Below are positions 2,567 to 23,379 of a stretch of DNA of 23,379 nucleotides, in pieces. Where the stretch lies: positions 1 through 23,379 of the IMG/VR virus record IMGVR_UViG_2690316028_000004, one strand, 5' to 3'. The notes beneath the pieces are model-generated. The model was not told the DNA's origin. It did not search any database and worked only from the letters and a program-made list of their open reading frames with translations. A program made the translations under genes and the position numbers. Source of the stretch: a virus (Duplodnaviria > Heunggongvirae > Uroviricota > Caudoviricetes). Numbering within the stretch: position 1 is the stretch's first letter; the number at the start of each line of letters is the position of its first letter.

Positions 2567-2912
2567 TCTCTGCTCCTGTTGATACGGAAAGGGACACAGG
2601 CACACCGTTATTCCGCCGCCCGGTCAGCTCCACCACCATTGAACCGTCAAAATTGCTGTTGATGGTGATGGAATCCAGCGTCAACCGTGGCTCCCAGCGA
2701 CTCAGCGCCACATACACTGCCGACATGATCTGCAGGCGTAATGCCGGATTTTGTGGCTGATCTATCAGTGCCGACAGCAGGGAACCATATTCCCGGCGGG
2801 CAATACGGCTACCCTGCGGTGTCAGCAGAATGTCCCGCACCGACTGGCGCAGATGATCAATATCAGTAATGACTTTGCCGCTGGTATTGTTCATCCCGCT
2901 ATAAAGCGTCAT
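2553..2912 (-). CDS. W: Baseplate wedge protein W (GPW/gp25 family)
   Basis: 119-aa ORF immediately upstream of J and downstream of V, the P2 position of W. Confidence 0.85.
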   Translation of the reverse strand: MTLYSGMNNTSGKVITDIDHLRQSVRDILLTPQGSRIARREYGSLLSALIDQPQNPALRLQIMSAVYVALSRWEPRLTLDSITINSNFDGSMVVELTGRRNNGVPVSLSVSTGAENGSD

Positions 2913-3487
2913 ACCGGGCCTCCGGTTGTATCGCCGCCTTTCAGGACGCCAGTATGCTGATGCGCATCAACCACGATCCCGTTAGAACTCATCGCTCCGC
3001 CGCCCTGGATAACGCCACCATTGATCACCACTTCGCTGTTAATACGCGTGCGGTCAGCCTCCAGTACAAACTCACTGGTTTTCATGGTGATGTTGTCAGC
3101 AGCCTCAATGACCATTGATTTGATGCCCCTGACATACCAGCGCCCGGTGGCGGGTTCGTATTCAAACCAGCCACCGTCAGGATGTTCTGTCACGCAGGCG
3201 TCCGCCGACGTCGACGGTGGTGCGAACTGATTCGAATAGACAGCGGGCAGCGCAAAGGCGGTTTCCAGATTGCCGCCCAGACTCAGCAGCACCACCTGCT
3301 CACCTTCCGATGGTCGCCACCATGTACGGGCATTCCCGGCACGCAGCGTCAGCCAGCTGATCCAGTTGGTTTCAAGCTCGCCCGTTTTCACCCGGCAAAG
3401 CCAGTTTTCCCGGTCCACTTCGGTGACTACCCCTGTGCGGATCAGGTTGGTGATAAGGCGCATGATTTCGGTTAATTGTGCGTTCAT
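2909..3487 (-). CDS. V: Baseplate spike/assembly protein V
   Basis: 192-aa ORF with the gpV-like pattern (RTGVVTEVD..., WLTLRAGNARTWW, C-terminal glycine-rich HTG...GG tail), overlapping the W start. Confidence 0.85.
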   Translation of the reverse strand: MNAQLTEIMRLITNLIRTGVVTEVDRENWLCRVKTGELETNWISWLTLRAGNARTWWRPSEGEQVVLLSLGGNLETAFALPAVYSNQFAPPSTSADACVTEHPDGGWFEYEPATGRWYVRGIKSMVIEAADNITMKTSEFVLEADRTRINSEVVINGGVIQGGGAMSSNGIVVDAHQHTGVLKGGDTTGGPV

Positions 3488-3533
3488 AGGGAAAGGTTGC
3501 CATCAGAGGAAGAAAGGCGGCAGTGCTGCAACT

Positions 3534-3551
3534 TGTATCAGTGCTGATACA
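3534..3551. promoter_or_regulatory. Candidate Ogr/Delta-type late-promoter activator site (TGT-N12-ACA dyad) upstream of V
   Basis: TTGTATCAGTGCTGATACAA is a near-perfect inverted repeat with TGT-N12-ACA, lying in the S-V intergenic gap where P2 carries late promoter P_V. Confidence 0.5.
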
Positions 3552-3555
3552 AAGA

Positions 3556-4002
3556 TCACCCCGCCAGCCATTGCAGAATCATGTCGCGGGTCATTGCCTC
3601 AACATCATCATTTACACCCAGAAGGCGACGCTCTGCGTAACGCACCTCCGGTCCCTTACGACTGACGCGATCTCGCAGGCCGTAATGGTGAACGCGGGCA
3701 ATGCGCTGCACCTTGCCTTCAAACTGCACGCTGGCAGAGTCGGTGCTGGCGGCAGTTTTCAGGTATTTTGTGGTGCGCAGCTTTGCAAACATCTGACGTT
3801 TGATACGGCCTTTTTTACTGCGTGCTGTTACCCGTCGCGGTTCATAGCTGCTGCCGTCAGGGTTGCGCTGCATCCTGATATTCTGCTGCTGTGTCCGGCG
3901 AAGTTCCTGCGCCAGCTGGCGCATCATGCGGCTTCTCGAGGCTGGTTCCAGATTCGCCAGCAAGGCACTCAGCCAGTCGTCCACCTTCTGCAGTTCAGCC
4001 AC
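3556..4002 (-). CDS. S: Tail completion protein S
   Basis: 148-aa ORF in the P2 S position, overlapping the R stop. Confidence 0.8.
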   Translation of the reverse strand: MAELQKVDDWLSALLANLEPASRSRMMRQLAQELRRTQQQNIRMQRNPDGSSYEPRRVTARSKKGRIKRQMFAKLRTTKYLKTAASTDSASVQFEGKVQRIARVHHYGLRDRVSRKGPEVRYAERRLLGVNDDVEAMTRDMILQWLAG

Positions 4003-4447
4003 GTTTCACCGTCCACATTTCTTCAGGTGCATCAGGTTCCGCTATAGCTTCAACGCTCGACACACTGCCGTCAGTGCTGACCAGCACACGTTCCGTCAGT
4101 TGCAGGTTCAGGCTGATATCACAGACATCGTTGCGCAGAATATCCACCTCAAAGGTGAATAGCTTTTCCCGTAACGCCGGGTTATTGATGGCATCGGGCT
4201 GGTTATCCCTCAGCCACAGCAAAACCGGGGCCATCAGCAGATTCTGGTCGCCGCTGAAATCTTCAATCACCGCGTTCAGGGTGTAACGGTACTCCCACGA
4301 CATGGAGCTGGCCCCCGTGGCAACCAGCGAACCGTTATCCACAAACAGATGCAGTTTGTCCGGGTTATTGCGGACATAAGGCACCGCTTTATTGAGGGCG
4401 TGGCGCAGGGATTGTGGTTTGTTCACTGTTTCGCTCCTGACACGCAA
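3995..4447 (-). CDS. R: Tail completion protein R
   Basis: 150-aa ORF in the P2 R position downstream of the lysis genes. Confidence 0.8.
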   Translation of the reverse strand: MRVRSETVNKPQSLRHALNKAVPYVRNNPDKLHLFVDNGSLVATGASSMSWEYRYTLNAVIEDFSGDQNLLMAPVLLWLRDNQPDAINNPALREKLFTFEVDILRNDVCDISLNLQLTERVLVSTDGSVSSVEAIAEPDAPEEMWTVKRG

Positions 4448-4679
4448 TAATCATGTCCACTTTGTCTGCACAGACCGCCCAGGCGGCCTCCGTTTCATCC
4501 AGCAACGCGTTCAGATCACCGTTAGTGCGCGGCGCTGCCTGATCCAGCCGACACGGCGTCACTCGCGGACAACCACTGACGGTAAGCTGCACCTCCGGTG
4601 AGCGTCGGACGTTCCCGCAGCCGGATAATGTCAGCAGGCAAAGGAGTATCAGCCCAGCGGCGTAAATCCTCGTTCTCAC
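4389..4679 (-). CDS. lysC: LysC-like outer-membrane spanin lipoprotein (Rz1 equivalent), nested out of frame in lysB
   Basis: 96-aa ORF starting MRTRIYAAGLILLCLLTLSGCG, a lipoprotein signal with a lipobox cysteine. It is embedded in and extends beyond the lysB reading frame. Confidence 0.65.
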   Translation of the reverse strand: MRTRIYAAGLILLCLLTLSGCGNVRRSPEVQLTVSGCPRVTPCRLDQAAPRTNGDLNALLDETEAAWAVCADKVDMIIACQERNSEQTTIPAPRPQ

Positions 4680-4950
4680 GTTTCAGTTCCTCAATCCGAT
4701 GTTGTCGTTGTCTCAGCAGCGCGCTGGTCTGTTCTGCTTCGGCATAGAGCCGCGCCTGCTCCCGGTTATTGGTTTCAGTCAGAATGGACAGGCTGATAAG
4801 CTGGCTGTTGCTCTTTGCCAGTGCCTGGCTTTTGCTCCGCAGCTCGTCTGCCTGCGTGCTGATGGTCTGGCTGGCATCAGCCAGCCGCCACGTCTGCCAG
4901 CCCAGCGACGCCAGTAATAACGCCAGCACAACCAGCAGCAACCGGTTCAT
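4522..4950 (-). CDS. lysB: LysB-like inner-membrane spanin (Rz equivalent)
   Basis: 142-aa ORF with an N-terminal TM segment (LLLVVLALLLASLGW) followed by a coiled-coil-like, charged region; in the P2 lysB position. Confidence 0.75.
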   Translation of the reverse strand: MNRLLLVVLALLLASLGWQTWRLADASQTISTQADELRSKSQALAKSNSQLISLSILTETNNREQARLYAEAEQTSALLRQRQHRIEELKRENEDLRRWADTPLPADIIRLRERPTLTGGAAYRQWLSASDAVSAGSGSAAH

Positions 4951-5324
4951 GCTGCTACCTGTTGCGCCATCTGGTTACGAGTGATCCAGAAGGCAATAAC
5001 GGTCAGCAGATAAAAGACCAGGGTAATGGCCCACCCCGTCCAGGCGAGACTTACGACAATCAGCAATCGCATAACCCAGCTGATAAATACGTTTTCTTTT
5101 CGGGTAATGCTCTTCAGCAAAGATGCCCTCAACTCCTGCCAGAGCGGGCCGTTCTTAATTAACGCAACCAGTGCTACCGGAATTGCCCCCCATGTCAGCA
5201 GGCAGGCTACCCAGACACCGGACGCTGCCAGTACCGGAAAAATCCCCTGCGGATACACCATTGCTGCGATTAACAGCGCCATCCATAACATCAGAAACAG
5301 TCCGCTGATTAATTTCTTTTTCAT
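4947..5324 (-). CDS. lysA: LysA-like lysis-timing membrane protein
   Basis: 125-aa protein with several hydrophobic helices, between K and lysB as in P2. Confidence 0.7.
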   Translation of the reverse strand: MKKKLISGLFLMLWMALLIAAMVYPQGIFPVLAASGVWVACLLTWGAIPVALVALIKNGPLWQELRASLLKSITRKENVFISWVMRLLIVVSLAWTGWAITLVFYLLTVIAFWITRNQMAQQVAA

Positions 5325-5325
5325 T

Positions 5326-5838
5326 TCAGTTTGCTCCCTGTAAACACCAGGCTATCTCCCGCGCACGGCGGTTATCCAGCCCCTGATTAAACACACCTTT
5401 TACATAAACCCAGCGCGGCAACTGTCGGCACGCATCCGCCCAGCGCCGCTGATTGAGCAATTTCACCAGCGTGGAGCTGCAGGCATTGCCCGTCCCCACG
5501 TTGAAGGCAAACGACACCGTAGCGTCATACACCTTCTGTGGTGGCTGTTGCTTCACACACCTTTCCAGTGCCCGCTCCACACGCAGCACGTTGGAGATCA
5601 GCCCTTCTGCTGCCTGTCGTTCCGTGATTGTTTTGCCGGGAATGACGCCCGATGTATTACCAATGCCGTCGGTCCAGACACCCGCGCTGCACTGATACGG
5701 CTGCAGACGACAGCCTTCGTAATCGGCAATCAGTTTCAGCCCCTCCACGGAGGTATGAAGCTGCTGAAAACCCGGCAGCGTGGCAGCAATAGCCAGCACA
5801 GCCCCGACAAGGCAGCGTTTAACGATTGATGGATTCAT
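5326..5838 (-). CDS. K: Endolysin K (phage lysozyme, GH24-like), possibly signal-anchor-release type
   Basis: 170-aa ORF with the phage lysozyme catalytic region (YEGCRLQPYQCSAGVWTDGIGNT) and an N-terminal hydrophobic stretch (CLVGAVLAIAATLPGF). Confidence 0.85.
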   Translation of the reverse strand: MNPSIVKRCLVGAVLAIAATLPGFQQLHTSVEGLKLIADYEGCRLQPYQCSAGVWTDGIGNTSGVIPGKTITERQAAEGLISNVLRVERALERCVKQQPPQKVYDATVSFAFNVGTGNACSSTLVKLLNQRRWADACRQLPRWVYVKGVFNQGLDNRRAREIAWCLQGAN

Positions 5839-6034
5839 AGTCCTCCCGCGAGATCTGCCCGTCGCGCAGAAGCTGGTAGGCTTTGTGTTTGTAGTACCAG
5901 TTGATAGCCAGCATCAGCACACCGATCATCAGGCCGCCCAGCGTTGAGGCATCCTTGATGGACAAATCGCCCAGCCAGGCCAGCACGACGGCGATGCAAT
6001 ACGTGATAAAGGCGCTGATTCGCTCAAGCGTCAT
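5819..6034 (-). CDS. Y: Holin Y
   Basis: 71-aa small membrane protein with two hydrophobic segments and a charged C-terminus, just upstream of the endolysin. Confidence 0.75.
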   Translation of the reverse strand: MTLERISAFITYCIAVVLAWLGDLSIKDASTLGGLMIGVLMLAINWYYKHKAYQLLRDGQISREDYESINR

Positions 6035-9505: not shown

Positions 9506-11272
9506 ATGAACACCACACTGACACCCGCAGATCTCGATCCCCGTCGGCAGGCCATGCTGCTGTACTTTCAGGGATACCGCGTAGCCCGCATTGCTGAAAT
9601 GCTGGGCGAGAAAGTTGCAACCGTTCACAGCTGGAAAAAACGCGACAAGTGGGGTGACTATGGGCCGCTGGATCAGATGCAGCTCACCACCGCCGCACGC
9701 TACTGCCAGCTCATTATGAAGGAGCACAAAGAAGGGAAAGATTTAAAAGAGATTGACCTGCTGGCGCGCCAGTCGGAGCGCCACGCGCGGATCGGCAAGT
9801 TTAACAATGGCGGCAACGAAGCCGACTTAAACCCTAACGTCGCCAACCGCAACAAAGGCCCGCGCCGTCAGCCGGAAAAGAATGTTTTCACCGATGAGCA
9901 GATTGAGAAGCTGGAAGAAATCTTCCATTCCTCCATGTTCAACTACCAGCGCCACTGGTGGGAAGCCGGAAAAGCCAACCGCATCCGCAACCTGCTGAAG
10001 TCACGCCAGATCGGCGCGACCTTTTACTTTGCCCGTGAAGCCCTGATTGACGCCCTGCTTACCGGACGTAACCAGATTTTCCTTTCCGCCAGCAAGGCAC
10101 AGGCCCACGTCTTTAAGCAGTACATCATCGACTTCGCCAAAGAAGTGGAGGTGGAGTTGAAAGGCGATCCGATGGTGCTTCCTAACGGGGCCACGCTTTA
10201 CTTCCTCGGCACCAATGCCCGCACTGCCCAGAGTTATCACGGCAACCTGTATCTGGATGAATATTTCTGGATACCGAAATTCCAGGAGCTGCGCAAAGTG
10301 GCTTCCGGTATGGCTATTCACAAAAAATGGCGACAAACCTATTTTTCCACGCCATCCAGCCTGACTCACAGTGCTTATCCGTTCTGGTCCGGTGCGCTGT
10401 TCAATCGTGGGCGCAACAAAGCCGATAAGGTGGACATCGACCTGTCCCACAGCAATCTGGCCCCCGGCCTGCTGTGCGCAGACGGGCAGTACCGCCAGAT
10501 AGTCACTGTGGAAGATGCGGTGCGCGGCGGCTGTAACCTGTTCGACCTCGACCAGTTGCGCATGGAGTACAGCCCGGACGAATACCAGAACCTACTGATG
10601 TGCGAGTTTGTGGACGATCTCGCGTCCGTGTTTCCGCTCAGCGAGCTGCAGGCGTGCATGGTGGACAGTTGGGAAGTCTGGACCGACTTTCATGCTCTGG
10701 CCCTGCGCCCGTTTGGCTGGCGCGAAGTGTGGATCGGTTATGACCCGGCAAAAGGTACGCAGAACGGCGACAGCGCCGGATGCGTGGTGGTGGCACCGCC
10801 AGCCGTGCCGGGCGGTAAGTTTCGCATTCTTGAGCGTCACCAGTGGCGCGGGATGGACTTCCGCGCCCAGGCTGACGCAATCAAAAAACTGACCGAGCAG
10901 TACAACGTGACCTACATCGGCATCGACTCAACCGGCGTTGGTCACGGGGTTTACGAGAACGTGAAAGCGTTCTTTCCTGCCGTCCGGGAGTTTGTCTACA
11001 ACCCCAACGTTAAAAACGCCCTGGTACTCAAGGCCTACGACATTATCAGCCACCGCCGTCTGGAGTTTGACGCCGGACATACCGACATTGCGCAGTCATT
11101 TATGGCAATCCGTCGCGCCACCACCGCCAGTGGCAACCGCCCGACCTATGAAGCCAGCCGCAGCGAAGAAGCCAGCCACGCCGATCTGGCATGGGCAACG
11201 ATGCACGCACTGTTTAACGAACCGCTGCAGGGCGAATCCGCCAATACCAGCAATATTGTGGAGATTTTTTGA
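9506..11272 (+). CDS. P: Terminase large (ATPase) subunit P
   Basis: 588-aa ORF, close to P2 gpP length, divergent from O and overlapping the Q start. Confidence 0.9.
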   Translation: MNTTLTPADLDPRRQAMLLYFQGYRVARIAEMLGEKVATVHSWKKRDKWGDYGPLDQMQLTTAARYCQLIMKEHKEGKDLKEIDLLARQSERHARIGKFNNGGNEADLNPNVANRNKGPRRQPEKNVFTDEQIEKLEEIFHSSMFNYQRHWWEAGKANRIRNLLKSRQIGATFYFAREALIDALLTGRNQIFLSASKAQAHVFKQYIIDFAKEVEVELKGDPMVLPNGATLYFLGTNARTAQSYHGNLYLDEYFWIPKFQELRKVASGMAIHKKWRQTYFSTPSSLTHSAYPFWSGALFNRGRNKADKVDIDLSHSNLAPGLLCADGQYRQIVTVEDAVRGGCNLFDLDQLRMEYSPDEYQNLLMCEFVDDLASVFPLSELQACMVDSWEVWTDFHALALRPFGWREVWIGYDPAKGTQNGDSAGCVVVAPPAVPGGKFRILERHQWRGMDFRAQADAIKKLTEQYNVTYIGIDSTGVGHGVYENVKAFFPAVREFVYNPNVKNALVLKAYDIISHRRLEFDAGHTDIAQSFMAIRRATTASGNRPTYEASRSEEASHADLAWATMHALFNEPLQGESANTSNIVEIF

Positions 11273-12343: not shown

Positions 12344-13084
12344 TTACTCAATAGGTTCAAACTCATCTTGAGGAATCAGCGTCGATTGACAGGCTTGGCT
12401 TAGTACCCCTGATAATTTACATAATAACCGATAGTTATGAGGAGCATCATCGCTAATCTTTTCGACCGTTAAAGTGATTGATTTTGGATCATCCAATAAC
12501 ATCTTCTTGATGTCATTACTTAAATACCTAGGGCAGTAACCAACGATTTCAGCTGGTTTATCTGCACGAACGACAACAGCATCCCCATCGTATTCATTTT
12601 GAAGATCCAAGCAAAGACGCAAAATTTGCCCCGGTTTCAATTCAGATACACGAGCATTAGCTAAGCTATTCAAGTAACCAAGTCCATGTAAGAAGAAAAA
12701 ATGCTCAAAGTTACCATCAGAATCAAAATCAATTTTTTTGAAAATCTGCAGCTGATCAGTGCTTCGTAAGCCTCCCGAGCGAGCAAGAATATCGATAGGA
12801 TTTACCTTATCTTCTTCAAATCCAAGCCATTTAATGAAACTCGGATACTCTGGACGTCTCGGTGATAAAAGGCGATTTTTAAAAAGAGGAAACAATTCTT
12901 CCGATACATAAGTTTCACGAACATCACTCATGCCGCTAAACTTTGTAAATTTAGAAGATTTAAGAGCACCTTTGGTATACCTGAAAACATACCCCGATTT
13001 GCGCTCTTGCAAGTTACCAACAACATGCCAGTCTCTGGTATCTGGTGCCTGCCATGCGACGTAAACGGAGTTTGTATTAGTCAT
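12344..13084 (-). CDS. Protein with HipA-N/HipS-like N-terminal region fused to a C-terminal HIRAN domain
   Basis: N-terminus: VVGNLQERKSGYVFRYTKG and LFPLFKNRLLSPRRPEY resemble the HipA N-terminal/HipS pattern. C-terminus: HGLGYL...ELKPGQILRLCLDLQNEYDGDAVVV...EIVGYCPRYLSNDIKKMLLDD fits the HIRAN motif layout. AT-rich; start overlaps the stop of the upstream kinase (ATGA). Confidence 0.6.
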   Translation of the reverse strand: MTNTNSVYVAWQAPDTRDWHVVGNLQERKSGYVFRYTKGALKSSKFTKFSGMSDVRETYVSEELFPLFKNRLLSPRRPEYPSFIKWLGFEEDKVNPIDILARSGGLRSTDQLQIFKKIDFDSDGNFEHFFFLHGLGYLNSLANARVSELKPGQILRLCLDLQNEYDGDAVVVRADKPAEIVGYCPRYLSNDIKKMLLDDPKSITLTVEKISDDAPHNYRLLCKLSGVLSQACQSTLIPQDEFEPIE

Positions 13085-13995
13085 TCTAGTAACCTTCTGC
13101 GATTTTCCATTACCATTAACGTTGCAAATCTACGTGCACTGTCGGATATACACGATGAAGGCACTTGGTTAAACACATCTGTAATGGAATCTTCTGTTAA
13201 AACGCTCAACTTACCTAACCAATGGTCGCGAGCGGCAACTCTCCCTTCAACTGCATGTTGAAATGCTTCAACAGTCAGCAAGGGCTTTTTATCAGTTTTT
13301 GCTTTGAATAGCTCAGAGCGAGCTTTTCTTACAAAACATGGGATTTGTCGATTTTTATCTTTAGTATTAAGCCGTTCGTTACGCTCATCATCTAACATCT
13401 CCCTTCCTAAACTAGCGGCATGATCGTATGTTGGACACAAAAACTGCTCACCAGTTTCATTGTTAAGCATGATTGCCCAATTTTCATGGTGGCGATCTTG
13501 ATTACTCACAAGTGCATCGAGCATCAAATATCCACAAAATACATCTGCTGCATTTAGCCCGGTTAGATCATATACACTCGGAGGAGGCTTGATAGATTCC
13601 CTATCTAAACAACCCAAGACCCTTGTGACAGTGTGTTCTCTGACCCTTACCGGCTTTTCCCCGGCTTGTAAAGGCCCAGGATAATCGAATGTCGAACTGT
13701 GAAGCACTTCATTTCCCATTACCATCCGGAAACCAGATGGAATGATATTCTGAGTCACCACACCGAATCGACCATTGTATCGCGCCAAATCATAGCTAGC
13801 ATGTGGAATGTTAAGCAAATGACATAACTCAGCAGCACACTTTTCAGACCAATGCTCGCCAGTACCTGGCCTAGAGTACTTAAACAACTGCAAATTTACA
13901 GTGTCATCGGAGAAATAGAACCAAAACTTCTCTTTGGTTCCTAACTGTTCAAGATCGTTAGCTACGGGGCTAAGCTCTACCAATTGGTATGGCAT
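13081..13995 (-). CDS. HipA-like Ser/Thr kinase core (HipT-like, lacks the HipA N-subdomain)
   Basis: 304 aa with a Gly-rich GTKEKF loop near the N-terminus, a catalytic-loop-like LDALVSNQDRHHENW and a downstream PTYDH, matching the HipA_C motif arrangement. AT-rich; first gene of a two-gene minus-strand operon. Confidence 0.6.
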   Translation of the reverse strand: MPYQLVELSPVANDLEQLGTKEKFWFYFSDDTVNLQLFKYSRPGTGEHWSEKCAAELCHLLNIPHASYDLARYNGRFGVVTQNIIPSGFRMVMGNEVLHSSTFDYPGPLQAGEKPVRVREHTVTRVLGCLDRESIKPPPSVYDLTGLNAADVFCGYLMLDALVSNQDRHHENWAIMLNNETGEQFLCPTYDHAASLGREMLDDERNERLNTKDKNRQIPCFVRKARSELFKAKTDKKPLLTVEAFQHAVEGRVAARDHWLGKLSVLTEDSITDVFNQVPSSCISDSARRFATLMVMENRRRLLE

Positions 13996-14166: not shown

Positions 14167-14552
14167 TGCCCGCTTTATGTAGTGGTTTTCATGCACTTGC
14201 ATGACATAAACAAAAGCCCGCCATTCCTGGCGGGCCTCAACTAAAACGATCCTCAAACGATCATGCGAATTCATGCGGCATAGACATGCATTGTTGCTTT
14301 ATCGATCTTTTCTTACTTCAAGTGAGTCCTTATGGCCTCCTGTCCACCTTGCGCTGCGCGTTCCCCCTGCCTCCCTTTGTCATAACTTAGATTTAATCCT
14401 CATAAATCAAGAGGTACTACACAAAGTACCAACTCACAACACTCAACAAACAGCCAATAATGAGCATAATACTAACTTGACTACTCCATAAAAAAATACG
14501 TAAACTACATTCATCAACAGTATTTCTCTAAAAAAGACGGGGTCACAATTCA

Positions 14553-15083
14553 ATGGCTACTACCAACTGTATTACTGTACTTACTGCTCGTGGTTTAACA
14601 GAGATTTTGAACACAGGGGGAAGCCAAGCATGGAGACTTGACGCCAGCCATGCAGCTAAGCACGAATATTTAGTTTGTGTACAAAATTCGAGAAAGGACT
14701 GGGGATCACAAGAAGCAAAACATCATCATGCTTTTATGATCGGTCGAATCTCGGGAGTAAGCAGGGCTCCAGAAAACCCTAAACGCTGGATCATAAACAT
14801 CAATTCTTATGCTGAAATTGACATCCCAGGACAATGGGATGGCAATCGGAATCCCGTTTCTTATCGCAACCTCAAAGACATTGGCATTGAGGCTGACAAG
14901 TTGGAATTTAAAGCTCTTCCCAAATTAACCCCGACTAATTCGATTGTCGATCAAGCGGGTGATGAGTACGAAGAAGAAGAAGAAAATGTAGTTAAGCCGT
15001 TAACACTTCAGGAGGCAAAAGCAGGGCTAGCCCTATACTTTGGTGTTAATGAAGAAAATATTCAAATAACTATACAAGGTTAA
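14553..15083 (+). CDS. Hypothetical protein (176 aa, acidic C-terminal stretch) at the old/tin-equivalent cargo position
   Basis: ORF in an AT-rich island between cos and the SOS operon, on the strand opposite its neighbours. No motif recognised with confidence. Confidence 0.6.
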   Translation: MATTNCITVLTARGLTEILNTGGSQAWRLDASHAAKHEYLVCVQNSRKDWGSQEAKHHHAFMIGRISGVSRAPENPKRWIININSYAEIDIPGQWDGNRNPVSYRNLKDIGIEADKLEFKALPKLTPTNSIVDQAGDEYEEEEENVVKPLTLQEAKAGLALYFGVNEENIQITIQG

Positions 15084-15349: not shown

Positions 15350-15583
15350 TTAATGCAGCCAGCTGTCGTCTTCCCACACTTTCTGCATAATTTTCATCAC
15401 TTGCTTCCTTTCTTCGTCCAGTTGCAGTCCGGTCAGTTCCACACCGTTAGAGCTACCTTTGCGGATGCGAATTACCGTTTTTGGATATAGGGGGCGCAGA
15501 TTGCGGTAAAGCTCGTATTCAAGGGCGTCCAGGGTAGACTGGCTAATCTTCTGCTCTTTATCGATCATTATTTCAATGCGCAT
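15350..15583 (-). CDS. DinI-family protein (SOS-regulated; possible Tum-like antirepressor component)
   Basis: 77 aa beginning MRIEIMIDK... and ending ...VWEDDSWLH, matching the DinI pattern (MRIEV...W at the C-terminus). Downstream of a LexA-box promoter. Confidence 0.75.
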   Translation of the reverse strand: MRIEIMIDKEQKISQSTLDALEYELYRNLRPLYPKTVIRIRKGSSNGVELTGLQLDEERKQVMKIMQKVWEDDSWLH

Positions 15584-20247: not shown

Positions 20248-20766
20248 TCACAGCAAACCGAATGAAGCACCGAGGCCAGTCACGGTATCAACTGCACTCG
20301 CCATCGCAGGATTAGCCTGTAAACGGGCCTGCAATGAAACAGCAGCCAGCGCCATCAGTCGTGTTACAGAGTTAATGCTGCTGATAGCATCACGACGACC
20401 TGCACTGGTTTTTACATCGCCAGATACCGCACCTGCAGCAACACGTCCGATCTCTGCGGTTGCACTCATGACGTAATGTGGCAGTTTCTCTTTTGCTACC
20501 TCATTAATCGGTACACATGGCAGACAGTGAATCTGAGCCAGAAAGCCATCTACCAGCGTCGAATCTTCAGTCAGATCGGTAAGCAGCCAAATTTCTGGTG
20601 CGGTTAATAAATGAGGTTGAGCAGGGTTCAACTTGTTTCGCAGAATCTGCACATTCATTCCTGCACGTCCTGCCAGCTGCACCAGGTTGTGGCGCAGTGC
20701 GAATGCACGACAGGCTTCATCAAAATGTGGATGTTTGGAAACTTGGTAATCAAACATGGTTTTCAA
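20248..20766 (-). CDS. cII: 186-type CII-like lysogeny regulator
   Basis: 172 aa beginning [27 protein letters not shown]...[11 protein letters not shown], which I recognise as the phage CII (CP76) family pattern; second gene of the rightward early operon as in 186. Confidence 0.7.
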
Positions 20767-20821: not shown

Positions 20822-21025
20822 TTAAGCAGACAAAGCATCAACAGTCAGAGCAGCCAGGTTAATCATTACCTTTTCACGTTTTTTGTCTTTACGAAGACGA
20901 TGACGAGGTAGTCGGCCATCAGCCAACATGTCGTTAATCGTATCAATAGAAAGGCCAGTCAGTTCGCTATAACGTTCGATTGTGACATGTGGTGTATTCA
21001 GAGTAATTGAAATGTTAGGTGTCAT
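20822..21025 (-). CDS. Apl/Cox-like excisionase and early transcriptional regulator
   Basis: 67-aa HTH protein ([22 protein letters not shown]), first gene of the early operon and divergent from the repressor. Confidence 0.7.
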
Positions 21026-21170
21026 AAGGCAACATTCCTTCTAGATATGGCTTGTGGCGAGCCGTTGTTTGTCGTGATTAGTAGTGAAGGCTCCAAAAGA
21101 AGACTTCTGGTTCAACTTTAAGATCGCTTTTGGAATCTGTCAACGAATTTTGGATTTCTTTGGAGGATTT
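21026..21170. promoter_or_regulatory. Immunity switch region (pR/pL-type promoters and operators)
   Basis: Non-coding interval between the divergent apl/cox start and the probable CI start; P2/186 phages place their lytic and lysogenic promoters here. Individual operators were not resolved. Confidence 0.5.
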
Positions 21171-21740
21171 GTGGATTTCAATAGCGGCGGTAAGAAAGCC
21201 ATAGAACGTTTGGTTGAAGCATACGGGTTCGGTACCCGTCAGGCTCTCTGTGATCATTTAGGTGTTTCTAAGAGCACCATGGCAACGCGTTATATGCGTG
21301 ATATTTTTCCGGCAGATTGGGTAATCCAGTGCGCCCTTGAAACGGGTACCTCGCTTAATTGGCTAACAACAGGGCATGGTTCAAAGCAAGCATCAGCAAA
21401 TACAAATACTATAGAAGTAGTAAAATATTTATTGTCTGATGGAGCATTGCAGGAAGACGGTTTTTATATTTTTGATAAGGGATTTCTACCCTCTACGTTT
21501 AAAAAACCTTTTGTCATCACAGATAACAATTCTGAATTTATTTGTGATAAAGAATTTGATGATATACGTGATGGTAAATGGGTAATAAGTATTGATGGCG
21601 AAATAACAATCCGCGACATCACTCGTTTACCCGGTGGAAGAATTTTCGTTGAAGGTGGAAACAGAGCCTTCGAGTGCAAGATAGAAGATGTTGAAATAAT
21701 TGGAAAAATTATAAGCTTAACAGTTAAGTATGTTAGATAA
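21171..21740 (+). CDS. cI: CI-like immunity repressor
   Basis: Probable GTG start at 21171 preceded by GGAGG (21162..21166). The N-terminus contains the ERLVEAYGF and HCALETG...NWL motifs I recall from 186 CI. The ORF track offers a longer frame from a GTG at 21084. Confidence 0.7.
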   Translation: MDFNSGGKKAIERLVEAYGFGTRQALCDHLGVSKSTMATRYMRDIFPADWVIQCALETGTSLNWLTTGHGSKQASANTNTIEVVKYLLSDGALQEDGFYIFDKGFLPSTFKKPFVITDNNSEFICDKEFDDIRDGKWVISIDGEITIRDITRLPGGRIFVEGGNRAFECKIEDVEIIGKIISLTVKYVR

Positions 21741-21755
21741 TACCTGGAGGAAACT

Positions 21756-21938
21756 ATGCTTGGTAAGTTTTTTTTTGTGGTTTTATCATGCTCTTTGTTA
21801 TTAAACCCACTAACTACCTATGCTAAAAATTATCCTTGTTCTGGGAAAAAGGGAGGTGTCTCTCACTGTACCTCTGATGGAAAATTTGTTTGCAATGATG
21901 GAACCATCAGTAAATCCAAAAAAACATGCATCAAATAA
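21756..21938 (+). CDS. Small exported cysteine-containing protein (signal peptide; possible lipoprotein)
   Basis: 60 aa with N-terminal signal ([23 protein letters not shown]), four cysteines in the mature part, and GGAGG 8 nt upstream of the ATG. AT-rich; immediately downstream of cI. Confidence 0.6.
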
Positions 21939-21951
21939 TAAGGAAATATGA

Positions 21952-23283
21952 ATGAGCACAGATATAACTTTCGATATACGTGATGAATATAAAAGAAAAG
22001 CCATTGCAGAAAAAATAATAAGTTTGCTAGAGTCTAATATTCCTGTTTCACCTATGGTCATAGATGGGGACTGGGGGACTGGAAAAACAGAGTTTTCAAA
22101 AAAGTTAGCATCCTTAATTGAAATAAACTCGACCAATCATAAAGTAGTTTATATAGATGCTTTTACTGAAGATCACAACGATGCTCCCATACTTACAATA
22201 ATGGCCGCAATTGCAGCTCTATATAATAGCGATGAAAAAAAGGAATTAATATCTAAGGCATTGCCAGCCCTCAGATTCGGACTTAAGACTGTACTCAAAG
22301 CTGGTGCTGGTTGGGTATTAAAACAAAATGCGGATGAAATTAATGAGGAATTTGAAGAGGTTATCAAAGACGCTGCAAATTCAGCTATCGATGGAACCAT
22401 CGAGGCTCTGTTAGAAGATCATATCGAGGCACAAAAGAACGTTCTTGCTCTAAAAGAAGTACTAACCAAATTAGCTGGAGAAAGTAAACTAACAATAATT
22501 ATAGATGAGTTAGACAGATGTAAGCCTAGTTTTGCCATTTCTATTATTGAAAATATAAAACATGTTTTTGATATAAAAAACATTAACTTTTTATTAATTG
22601 CAAACACAACTCAACTAAAAGCATCCATAAATCATATCTATGGCTCTTCTGTAGACTCCAACCGTTATCTTGACAAATTTATAAAATTTACATACAGCCT
22701 TCCTGTTACCTTTAAGGAAGATAATTATAATGACACTTTAACTTCCAAAAATCATTGGATGATGCTATGTGAGCAATCTGAAAGGCTGACCGCTGCAGTA
22801 GAAGCCAGCGAAGATATTTTCTTACAGTTCATTGAAAGTAGAAAATTATCATTACGTGAGGTTGAAACACTTGCTAGATATGTTGAAATATACCAACTAC
22901 TATCAGGCGACAAAATTAGCAACAAATATATTTATGGATATTGCTATTACAGGACTCTAGCGATAATAATCTACACTTTTAACCGAGAGTTAGCTCTCAA
23001 CTTTCTTGAAGATAAAGTTGATGCTCAATCAATCATGAAATTGTTTGGTTTGTCTAAATTTTCATATCAAACAAGTGAATATAATGTAGATAATTATGAA
23101 TATGCTATATTTGGAATAGTTTACAAATACTTATCTGAAAACTCATCTCTTTTACCTACTGAGGAAAATATAAAAAGACAATGGGCAGAAATGAGTGAAT
23201 ACCATTTTTTAAAAGGTAGTGGCGGTATTGGTGAACCAACAAATATTGTGAAAGATGCTTTAAAAGTTTTTTTACTTCAGTGA
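21952..23283 (+). CDS. KAP-family P-loop NTPase
   Basis: 443 aa with Walker A GDWGTGKT and Walker B IIIDELDRC in a KAP-like arrangement; AT-rich; AAGGAAA upstream of the ATG; same strand as cI. Confidence 0.75.
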   Translation: MSTDITFDIRDEYKRKAIAEKIISLLESNIPVSPMVIDGDWGTGKTEFSKKLASLIEINSTNHKVVYIDAFTEDHNDAPILTIMAAIAALYNSDEKKELISKALPALRFGLKTVLKAGAGWVLKQNADEINEEFEEVIKDAANSAIDGTIEALLEDHIEAQKNVLALKEVLTKLAGESKLTIIIDELDRCKPSFAISIIENIKHVFDIKNINFLLIANTTQLKASINHIYGSSVDSNRYLDKFIKFTYSLPVTFKEDNYNDTLTSKNHWMMLCEQSERLTAAVEASEDIFLQFIESRKLSLREVETLARYVEIYQLLSGDKISNKYIYGYCYYRTLAIIIYTFNRELALNFLEDKVDAQSIMKLFGLSKFSYQTSEYNVDNYEYAIFGIVYKYLSENSSLLPTEENIKRQWAEMSEYHFLKGSGGIGEPTNIVKDALKVFLLQ

Positions 23284-23379
23284 TATGTATGGCTATACAA
23301 ATTCATACATTGACACTGGTTATATATGGGTCTTCCCCGATCATGGTGGGAAGGCTCAGAACGCCATATTCAGCTTTCC

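Follow-up and report, generated by a model that had tools for sequence, protein, structure and literature searches.

A KAP-family NTPase and a YdcA-family secreted peptide as separable candidate cargo between cI and int in 186-like prophages of Escherichia coli

Results

Two AT-rich genes follow the repressor gene

We analyzed a 23,379-nucleotide stretch of a 186-like prophage (IMG/VR virus record IMGVR_UViG_2690316028_000004; hereafter the window, meaning the whole of this stretch), and in particular the two genes that lie directly downstream of its cI immunity repressor gene. The first encodes a 60-amino acid (aa) protein of the YdcA family that is predicted to be exported (positions 21756–21938, + strand), and the second a 443-aa, soluble KAP-family P-loop NTPase (21952–23283, + strand) that belongs to the PADLOC candidate defence family PDC-S20. 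Both open reading frames (ORFs) lie exactly where a first-pass annotation, made from the sequence alone, had placed them. Our combined findings suggest that these genes are two independent cargo modules in a variable, defence-associated slot between cI and the integrase gene (int), with the KAP protein probably acting as a single-gene anti-phage defence protein.

The cI gene is the first gene of the lysogenic unit (21171–21740, + strand; Pfam Phage_CI_repr, E = 3.3e-31, and Phage_CI_C, E = 1.6e-28). Its reading frame is open from a GTG at 21084, and a 189-aa form is annotated in RefSeq relatives (e.g., NZ_CP104274). It is preceded, in divergent orientation, by two genes recognized from profile matches: an apl/cox-like excisionase-repressor gene (20822–21025, − strand; phrog_575, Cox-like excisionase and repressor, E = 1e-29) and a cII-like activator gene of the early lytic operon (20248–20766, − strand; Pfam Phage_CP76, E = 1.9e-41). 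Downstream of cI, the gap to ydcA is 15 bp and includes a GGAGG, and that between ydcA and the KAP gene is 13 bp, with Shine-Dalgarno sequences present in these gaps. The AT-rich composition noted in the first-pass annotation was confirmed, with a G+C content (GC) of 0.32–0.37 across 21501–23000 compared to 0.52–0.60 in most of the prophage and ~0.55 for the backbone.

In phage 186 (NC_001317), cI and int overlap by a single base and are annotated as a lysogenic operon driven by pL and pE, which bears out the premise of the first-pass annotation that int follows cI in this phage. The ydcA and KAP genes fit this operon layout, being on the same strand and directly after the repressor gene. No terminator-like sites were found in the cI-ydcA and ydcA-KAP gaps, and a search for an internal promoter yielded seven promoter-like matches, none convincing, compared to 10.1 expected from shuffled sequences. 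Because the gaps are only 13–15 bp long and no convincing internal promoter or terminator was found, we propose, on operon geometry alone, that ydcA and the KAP gene would be transcribed from pL together with cI.

The cassette is followed by int in relatives and by ISKox3 in the window

The cI-ydcA-KAP cassette was found in 34 of 5426 complete E. coli genomes, at 99.6–100% identity, and in all 34 the gene order is cI-YdcA-KAP-int-attR(rcdA); E. coli NC101 and NGF1 are among the carriers. In NZ_CP104274, for example, 80 bp separate the KAP stop codon from the start of int, which is followed by the host gene rcdA. Thus, the position of the two genes between cI and int holds in these near-identical E. 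coli prophages. The exact 443-aa protein was seen on 535 contigs. Clustering at 90% identity has misplaced it in a group of 4523 members, of which the representative and the listed members are phage integrases; this artefact hid the protein's own cluster, so that a first homologue search showed nothing above 71% identity.

The earlier suggestion that sequence past position 23379 would show whether int follows does not hold directly for this prophage copy. The alignment of the window with all 34 relatives breaks at 23328, and the last 52 bases (23328–23379, strand not assigned) are an end of ISKox3, an insertion sequence (IS) of the ISL3 family. This end begins 44 bp past the KAP stop codon, upstream of the site of int in the relatives, and 711 E. 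coli records contain annotated ISKox3 transposase elements that match it at 100%; none of the 34 cassette-bearing complete E. coli genomes carries ISKox3 at the same site. Since the element parts the cI-ydcA-KAP unit from the int site, the prophage copy in the window may not excise normally.

An intact relative, L001, carries a promoter-like element before int (TTGACA-N17-AAAAAT, 10 of 12 matches, at 10311–10339), and a very stable hairpin with a U-run then covers the Shine-Dalgarno sequence of int (z = −5.8; the region at 10311–10375 of L001 corresponds to the window from 23310 onward). Both the promoter-like element and the hairpin are kept in prophages with YdcA only, with KAP only and with YdcA plus KAP. 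ISKox3 is inserted inside the promoter-like element, and the window retains only its left part (the TTGACA −35 hexamer and spacer, 23310–23327, + strand). From this arrangement, the cI-ydcA-KAP message may end or be attenuated at the hairpin before int, which possibly serves both as a terminator or attenuator of the cI-cargo transcript and in translational control of int.

A soluble KAP protein with a conserved core and a divergent C-terminus

A profile search upheld the assignment of the 443-aa protein to the KAP family far beyond chance, with a match to Pfam KAP_NTPase (PF07693) of 182.5 bits against a cutoff of 20 (E = 1.4e-53), covering residues 15–316 on profile positions 1–291 of 293. 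Over its full length (residues 1–441 of 443 on positions 1–447 of 450) it matches PADLOC model PDLC04956 of PDC-S20 (E = 2.6e-171, 569 bits); three more PDC-S20 sub-models also match, as does phrog_8614, again at full length. Both P-loop motifs (GxxGxGKT and hhhhDE) are present, as the Walker A sequence GDWGTGKT (residues 39–46; 22066–22089, + strand) and the Walker B region IIIDELDRC (residues 182–190; 22495–22521, + strand). In an alignment of 21 homologues with identities down to 40%, W41, G42, T43, G44, K45 and T46 of the former and D185, E186, L187, D188, R189 and C190 of the latter are invariant, and both the length of the protein and all NTPase motifs are kept across 1391 homologues, down to ~40% identity.

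Classical prokaryotic KAP NTPases are described as having transmembrane helices inserted within the P-loop domain (Aravind et al. 2004, as cited in PMC13552941), and such helices are also present in Tmn and EF_KAP. In contrast, hydropathy analysis revealed no membrane segment in the protein studied here. No 19-residue window exceeds a mean Kyte-Doolittle value of 0.93, compared to the usual 1.6, and we therefore ruled out a membrane-anchored KAP protein of the Tmn/EF_KAP kind. The AlphaFold model (predicted local distance difference test score, pLDDT, of 80) consists of an NTPase core and an all-helical C-terminal region. Between Walker A and Walker B it has a helical hairpin insert (residues 93–175; 22228–22476, + strand), modelled as helices 93–127 and 135–175 with low confidence at 109–150, which in the model occupies the site where classical KAP proteins have their transmembrane helices. 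The closest solved folds were those of RdrA and BrxC, and the fold also resembles ORC/Cdc6, DnaA and TnsC. No sequence relatives were found in the PDB with a profile built from the 21 sequences.

The variable C-terminal helical region (residues 311–443; 22882–23280, + strand) is 59% and 36% identical to that of two other E. coli alleles, compared to 76% and 62% for residues 1–310 of the same alleles. Its divergence thus proceeds at roughly double the rate of the NTPase core, and the last invariant column in the alignment is Q315. This pattern suggests that the C-terminal region is a putative specificity or sensor part of the protein.

A conserved, predicted secreted peptide in the presumed lysogenic operon

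We assigned the 60-aa protein to the YdcA family of E. coli (NCBIfam PRK10040 models; Pfam PF27300); it passes the equivalog-type model NF007463 with 108.8 bits against a cutoff of 93 and matches phrog_6000 (E = 2e-32). It carries the YdcA family label in the RefSeq record NZ_CP104274, and PF27300 has been assigned to its relatives in precomputed annotations. Its hydrophobic N-terminus (19-residue Kyte-Doolittle mean of 1.74) constitutes a predicted signal peptide of residues 1–23 (nt 21756–21824, + strand), also supported by the alignment. Judging from hydropathy, charge and alignment, this is followed by a basic mature peptide of 37 aa (nt 21825–21935, + strand) with four cysteines, eight lysines and an isoelectric point of 9.5. 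These features agree with its first description as an exported, cysteine-containing protein. The structure model has a pLDDT of 79.

In 12 of 12 aligned family members the four cysteines are invariant and the −3/−1 signal-peptidase rule is obeyed. The signal peptide drifts except at −1 (alanine) and −3 (a small residue), and the mature peptide, whose core is common to the relatives, is near-invariant across Enterobacterales, Haemophilus and Moraxella.

The gene is common. YdcA follows cI in ~11% of complete E. coli genomes, and 19,603 blocks of the sequence collection list a 63-aa variant. In Haemophilus phage HP2 (NC_003315), a distant member of the P2 family, a 60-aa YdcA ORF that is intact but lacks annotation (2486–2668 of the record, complement; L087 2920–3102) starts at the last base of cI. 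The next gene, orf1(S), encodes a protein of 254 aa whose N-terminus resembles a signal peptide and which has a tRNA_anti-like OB fold; int lies beyond it, giving the same order as in the window, cI-YdcA-X-int. Homologues also occur in Moraxella Mcat phages, Acinetobacter phages and Pseudomonas phages. The papers naming ydcA in our literature search only list it among regulated genes. To our knowledge, that ydcA habitually follows cI in 186-like prophages and in HP2 has not been described.

The slot between cI and int carries variable cargo

We measured the interval between cI and int in 80 viral contigs whose int shares at least 99% identity with the int of the intact relatives; it ranges from 389 to 2652 bp. 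In 41 contigs the slot holds YdcA only (~399 bp), ten of these having a cI 97–98% identical to that of the window, and five contigs have YdcA plus KAP (1626 or 1638 bp). The other 34 contigs, with intervals of 1099 to 2652 bp, have no YdcA; two of them (2613 bp) carry a weak KAP relative and 32 carry neither gene. All of the non-YdcA cargo examined is AT-rich (GC of 0.31–0.36), and the occupants identified with PADLOC include Old (E = 9e-235), PD-Lambda-1 (E = 5e-120), an AriA/Old-like ABC ATPase, PDC-M18A and PDC-M11A. Because Old, PD-Lambda-1 and other cargo occupy the same slot in sister prophages, we consider it a defence hotspot, with conserved flanks and variable, AT-rich cargo that includes known defence systems.

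Sister prophages are 98–100% identical in cII and 95–99.7% identical in int, compared to 53–86% in cI, 65–87% in YdcA and 54–71% in KAP, which indicates that the repressor and the cargo travel as one mosaic block.

Besides YdcA and KAP, the slot carries at least eight other cargo types, the occupants identified above among them (examples are found in L146 at 4158–5924, L190 at 2632–4305, L184 at 4255–5908, L145 at 4945–5916 and L138 at 4445–5908). Several have no PADLOC match and are candidate new systems: a two-gene cassette with a multi-transmembrane protein, a 324-aa coiled-coil transmembrane protein and a protein of 488 aa. The 2613-bp slot of L116 (~3447–5913) has an extra 307-aa cI-like ORF, apparently with two repressor N-domains and one C-domain, and an N-terminally truncated KAP relative of 345 aa in which Walker B is present and Walker A is absent. 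In some sister prophages a DUF4917 protein (L096 5508–6491; PDC-S21, E = 9e-122, with a weak SIR2-like match) lies between int and the attachment site, a reported minor hotspot of P2.

YdcA and KAP occur independently of each other

Whether the two proteins work together was left undecided at first annotation; comparative data point to separable modules rather than a pair. The arrangement cI-YdcA-int without KAP is found in 593 of the 5426 complete E. coli genomes. The reciprocal arrangement, cI-KAP-int without YdcA, occurs in E. coli L086 (KAP 56% identical) and in Serratia fonticola L002 (52%). In Yersinia, a KAP protein of 51% identity follows cI together with an unrelated 160-aa protein. 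Further afield, KAP relatives of 45–46% identity stand alone, on the opposite strand, between the Q antiterminator and holin genes, a moron position, of lambdoid prophages in Citrobacter and Cronobacter, and a Vibrio relative lies beside HsdM and HsdS of a type I restriction-modification (RM) system and PDC-M72A. Among the matches listed for 80 distant KAP loci, mainly outside Enterobacterales, none had a YdcA gene nearby. In YdcA-only prophages, the right junction keeps the last three KAP codons (CTTCAGTGA), and the ~130-bp spacer is otherwise unrelated.

Relation to known KAP-type and repressor-linked systems

PDC systems are 145 single- or multi-gene candidates predicted from their embedding in BREX, DISARM and type I RM loci (10.1101/2024.01.29.577857). 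Beyond its full-length match, the KAP protein resembles PDC-S20 in being a single gene without a fixed partner and in its association with defence loci; the solo occurrences in L086, L002 and the lambdoid Q-holin sites agree with the single-gene classification, and we saw no feature that sets the protein apart from this family. Among proteins with demonstrated activity, the KAP-domain protein EF_KAP and three metagenomic relatives protect Enterococcus faecalis against phages, and a Walker B mutation abolishes EF_KAP defence (PMC13552941). Tmn, PifA and QatA are further NTPases of the KAP/YobI type with experimental support in defence. Reve, a single-gene KAP-domain system from a P4 hotspot, protects E. 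coli (PMC13586616); we liken it to the present protein by description only.

Three named ATPases, QatA, PifA and RdrA, were considered as identities and rejected. QatA matches on the KAP NTPase core only (E = 1.5e-11), with 41.3 bits for NF041923 against a cutoff of 600. QatA profiles are 593–646 positions long and QatA works with QatBCD, whereas the neighbours here are ydcA and int. PifA of the F plasmid likewise matches only in the NTPase core (residues 11–252 on positions 17–255 of a 720-position profile, E = 7e-16). RdrA of RADAR is ~790 aa long and acts with the deaminase RdrB, a partner that is not found beside the KAP gene here, and BrxC is one component of the six-gene BREX system, whose other members are likewise missing from this locus. 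The resemblance to RdrA and BrxC is one of fold, with sequence identities of 7–15%.

Defence cargo adjoining a repressor gene is a classical idea, exemplified by rexAB of phage lambda. Lambda rexAB and the present cargo are alike in being accessory genes directly after the repressor gene and in the same orientation. Together with old, tin and fun of P2 they share predicted expression in the lysogen and predicted action on other phages, and Old itself occupies sister slots. The analogy to rexAB drawn in the first-pass annotation therefore stands as one of position, given the Old and PD-Lambda-1 genes in this slot, but no homology to RexA or RexB was found: searches of PADLOC, Pfam, NCBIfam and PHROGs, in each of which the inclusion of Rex models was unconfirmed, gave only KAP- and YdcA-type matches.

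The novelty initially attached to these genes was overstated, since the family of the KAP protein is already in PADLOC as PDC-S20, and such a hotspot as well as KAP-based defence have been published (PMC9122126, PMC13586616, PMC13552941). A cI-int hotspot has been described in Vibrio K139-like phages, which are P2-related (Rousset 2022, PMC9122126). It too has variable cargo between repressor and integrase, while the slot reported here belongs to the E. coli 186-like lineage next to rcdA and has occupants of its own. In P2, 8% of defence systems lie between integrase and primase, a minor hotspot (2026 survey, PMC13586616). We found no KAP or YdcA occupants named in PMC9122126 or PMC13586616.

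Other features of the window

A second AT-rich cargo region (GC of 0.38–0.45) is located at 12344–13995 (− strand), at the known gpA-portal hotspot. It consists of two overlapping genes, one matching PDC-M03A (E = 4e-122, with a weak HipA_C kinase-like match) and the other PDC-M03B (E = 4e-92, HIRAN domain). ORFs at 14273–14491 and 14553–15083 have no family match, and a DinI-like gene is present at 15350–15583.

Discussion

Our findings are best accommodated by two independent cargo modules in a defence-hotspot slot, with the KAP protein probably functioning as a single-gene anti-phage defence protein. Several lines of evidence make it a defence candidate: it is allelic with Old and PD-Lambda-1, it recurs by itself as cargo of two prophage families that are unrelated to each other and of a restriction island, it belongs to PDC-S20, its fold is akin to those of RdrA and BrxC, and its C-terminus evolves fast. 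In such a mechanism, the lysogen would produce the KAP protein from the cI (pL) transcript, and the protein would act as a nucleotide-dependent switch related to ATPases of the ORC, STAND and RdrA type. The variable C-terminal helical region would recognize a component of an infecting phage, upon which the conserved N-terminal NTPase module would oligomerize and hydrolyze nucleoside triphosphate (NTP), with phage development blocked or the infection aborted as the outcome. We leave the effector step unassigned because the protein has neither a membrane anchor nor a recognizable nuclease, protease or toxin domain; perhaps it consists of the ATPase activity itself or involves a host partner.

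A number of observations weigh against defence by a solitary KAP protein. PDC systems are computationally predicted candidates (10.1101/2024.01.29.577857), and our literature search found no paper naming PDC-S20. The KAP proteins validated in defence all have extras, be they transmembrane helices, a C-terminal domain or partners, and no nuclease, protease, toxin, TIR, SIR2 or other effector domain was detected in the protein studied here; its solo function is accordingly our inference. The structural matches have modest TM-scores (~0.37 normalized to the query), and the model falls below a pLDDT of 50 at residues 109–150. The gene is also rare, with this allele in 34 of the 5426 genomes and any relative detectable at the DNA level in 123. 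Finally, the companion YdcA is unlike a typical defence gene in that its mature peptide hardly varies.

A bolder version, which we regard as rather unlikely, is that a minimal, soluble KAP protein gives immunity entirely alone, with no anchor, effector or partner, and that YdcA represents a new type of periplasmic factor through which P2-family phages bring about lysogenic conversion or superinfection exclusion. Under this scenario, the KAP protein might use NTP to capture or take apart a phage assembly, or might deplete nucleotides as ring-shaped oligomers.

The KAP protein may instead be conflict-related but directed against plasmids or conjugative elements, or it may be a counter-defence or addiction module that stabilizes the prophage. 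Its nearest named relatives include PifA of the F plasmid and QatA, its structural neighbour BrxC comes from BREX, which also restricts plasmids, and no effector domain is visible. Yet the anti-phage genes Old and PD-Lambda-1 are alleles of the same slot, those KAP-domain proteins that have been put to the test restrict phages (PMC13552941, PMC13586616), and in several settings the gene is found by itself, with no toxin-antitoxin-like partner. We consider such a role improbable.

We see similarly little likelihood that the KAP protein serves the phage's own cycle, by controlling integration and excision, maintaining the prophage or excluding only homo-immune phages. Such a function would fit its location between two core lysogeny genes, the linkage of KAP alleles to cI immunity alleles in the mosaic block, and a fold like that of ORC/Cdc6, DnaA and TnsC, proteins involved in loading or regulating DNA machines. 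However, most sister prophages with the same int have no KAP gene, and the ten contigs that share the cI type of the window have YdcA only. Furthermore, the relatives at the lambdoid Q-holin site and in the Vibrio RM island have no adjoining cI or int, and the AT-rich composition marks the gene as foreign to the phage backbone.

The adjacency of the two genes, co-oriented and 13 bp apart, raises the question of whether they form a single two-component system, in which sensing or action at the envelope would fall to the peptide and the NTPase would relay the signal or carry out the response, much as for RexA and RexB. The pair does recur as diverged alleles (KAP 71% and YdcA 67–68% identical). 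Nonetheless, YdcA without KAP in 593 complete genomes and 41 of the 80 viral contigs, KAP without YdcA in L086, L002, the lambdoid prophages and, next to an unrelated 160-aa neighbour, Yersinia, as well as the lack of YdcA near the 80 distant KAP loci, among the matches listed, argue against such a system. So do the unrelated exported protein that adjoins YdcA in HP2 and the lack of a membrane segment through which the KAP protein could meet a periplasmic peptide. These findings make a joint system very unlikely. That the KAP gene is a hitch-hiking remnant kept through its linkage to cI is equally hard to credit, for although it is of low prevalence, is cut off from int by the IS in a prophage copy that may be decaying, and has a truncated relative in L116, its 443-aa ORF is intact in 34 genomes at 99.6–100% identity, the exact protein is on 535 contigs, and length and NTPase motifs are kept over 1391 homologues.

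Returning to the two independent modules, YdcA appears to be a separate and far commoner lysogenic-conversion gene, whose product is predicted to be a Sec-exported, disulphide-bonded and strongly basic 37-aa peptide acting in the periplasm. That the mature peptide hardly varies across Enterobacterales, Haemophilus and Moraxella speaks against an arms race and for a conserved component of the envelope as its probable target.

The new contribution is a modest one: the documentation of the cI-int slot and its occupants in the E. coli 186-like lineage, a KAP form that appears soluble, effector-less and solo, the independence of the two genes, and the habit of YdcA of following cI, including in HP2. 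The survey adds a well-populated cI-int hotspot, several occupants of which match no defence model. If the KAP protein protects against phages, no simpler KAP-type defence protein would be known, as it is soluble, partnerless and only 443 aa long, and one of the 145 candidates in PADLOC would be validated. The natural series of KAP alleles (100%, 71% and 56% identity) in otherwise near-identical prophages is well suited to mapping specificity to the C-terminus. YdcA is the less expected item, a very common and very conserved peptide, predicted to be secreted, in the lysogenic operon of distant P2-family phages.

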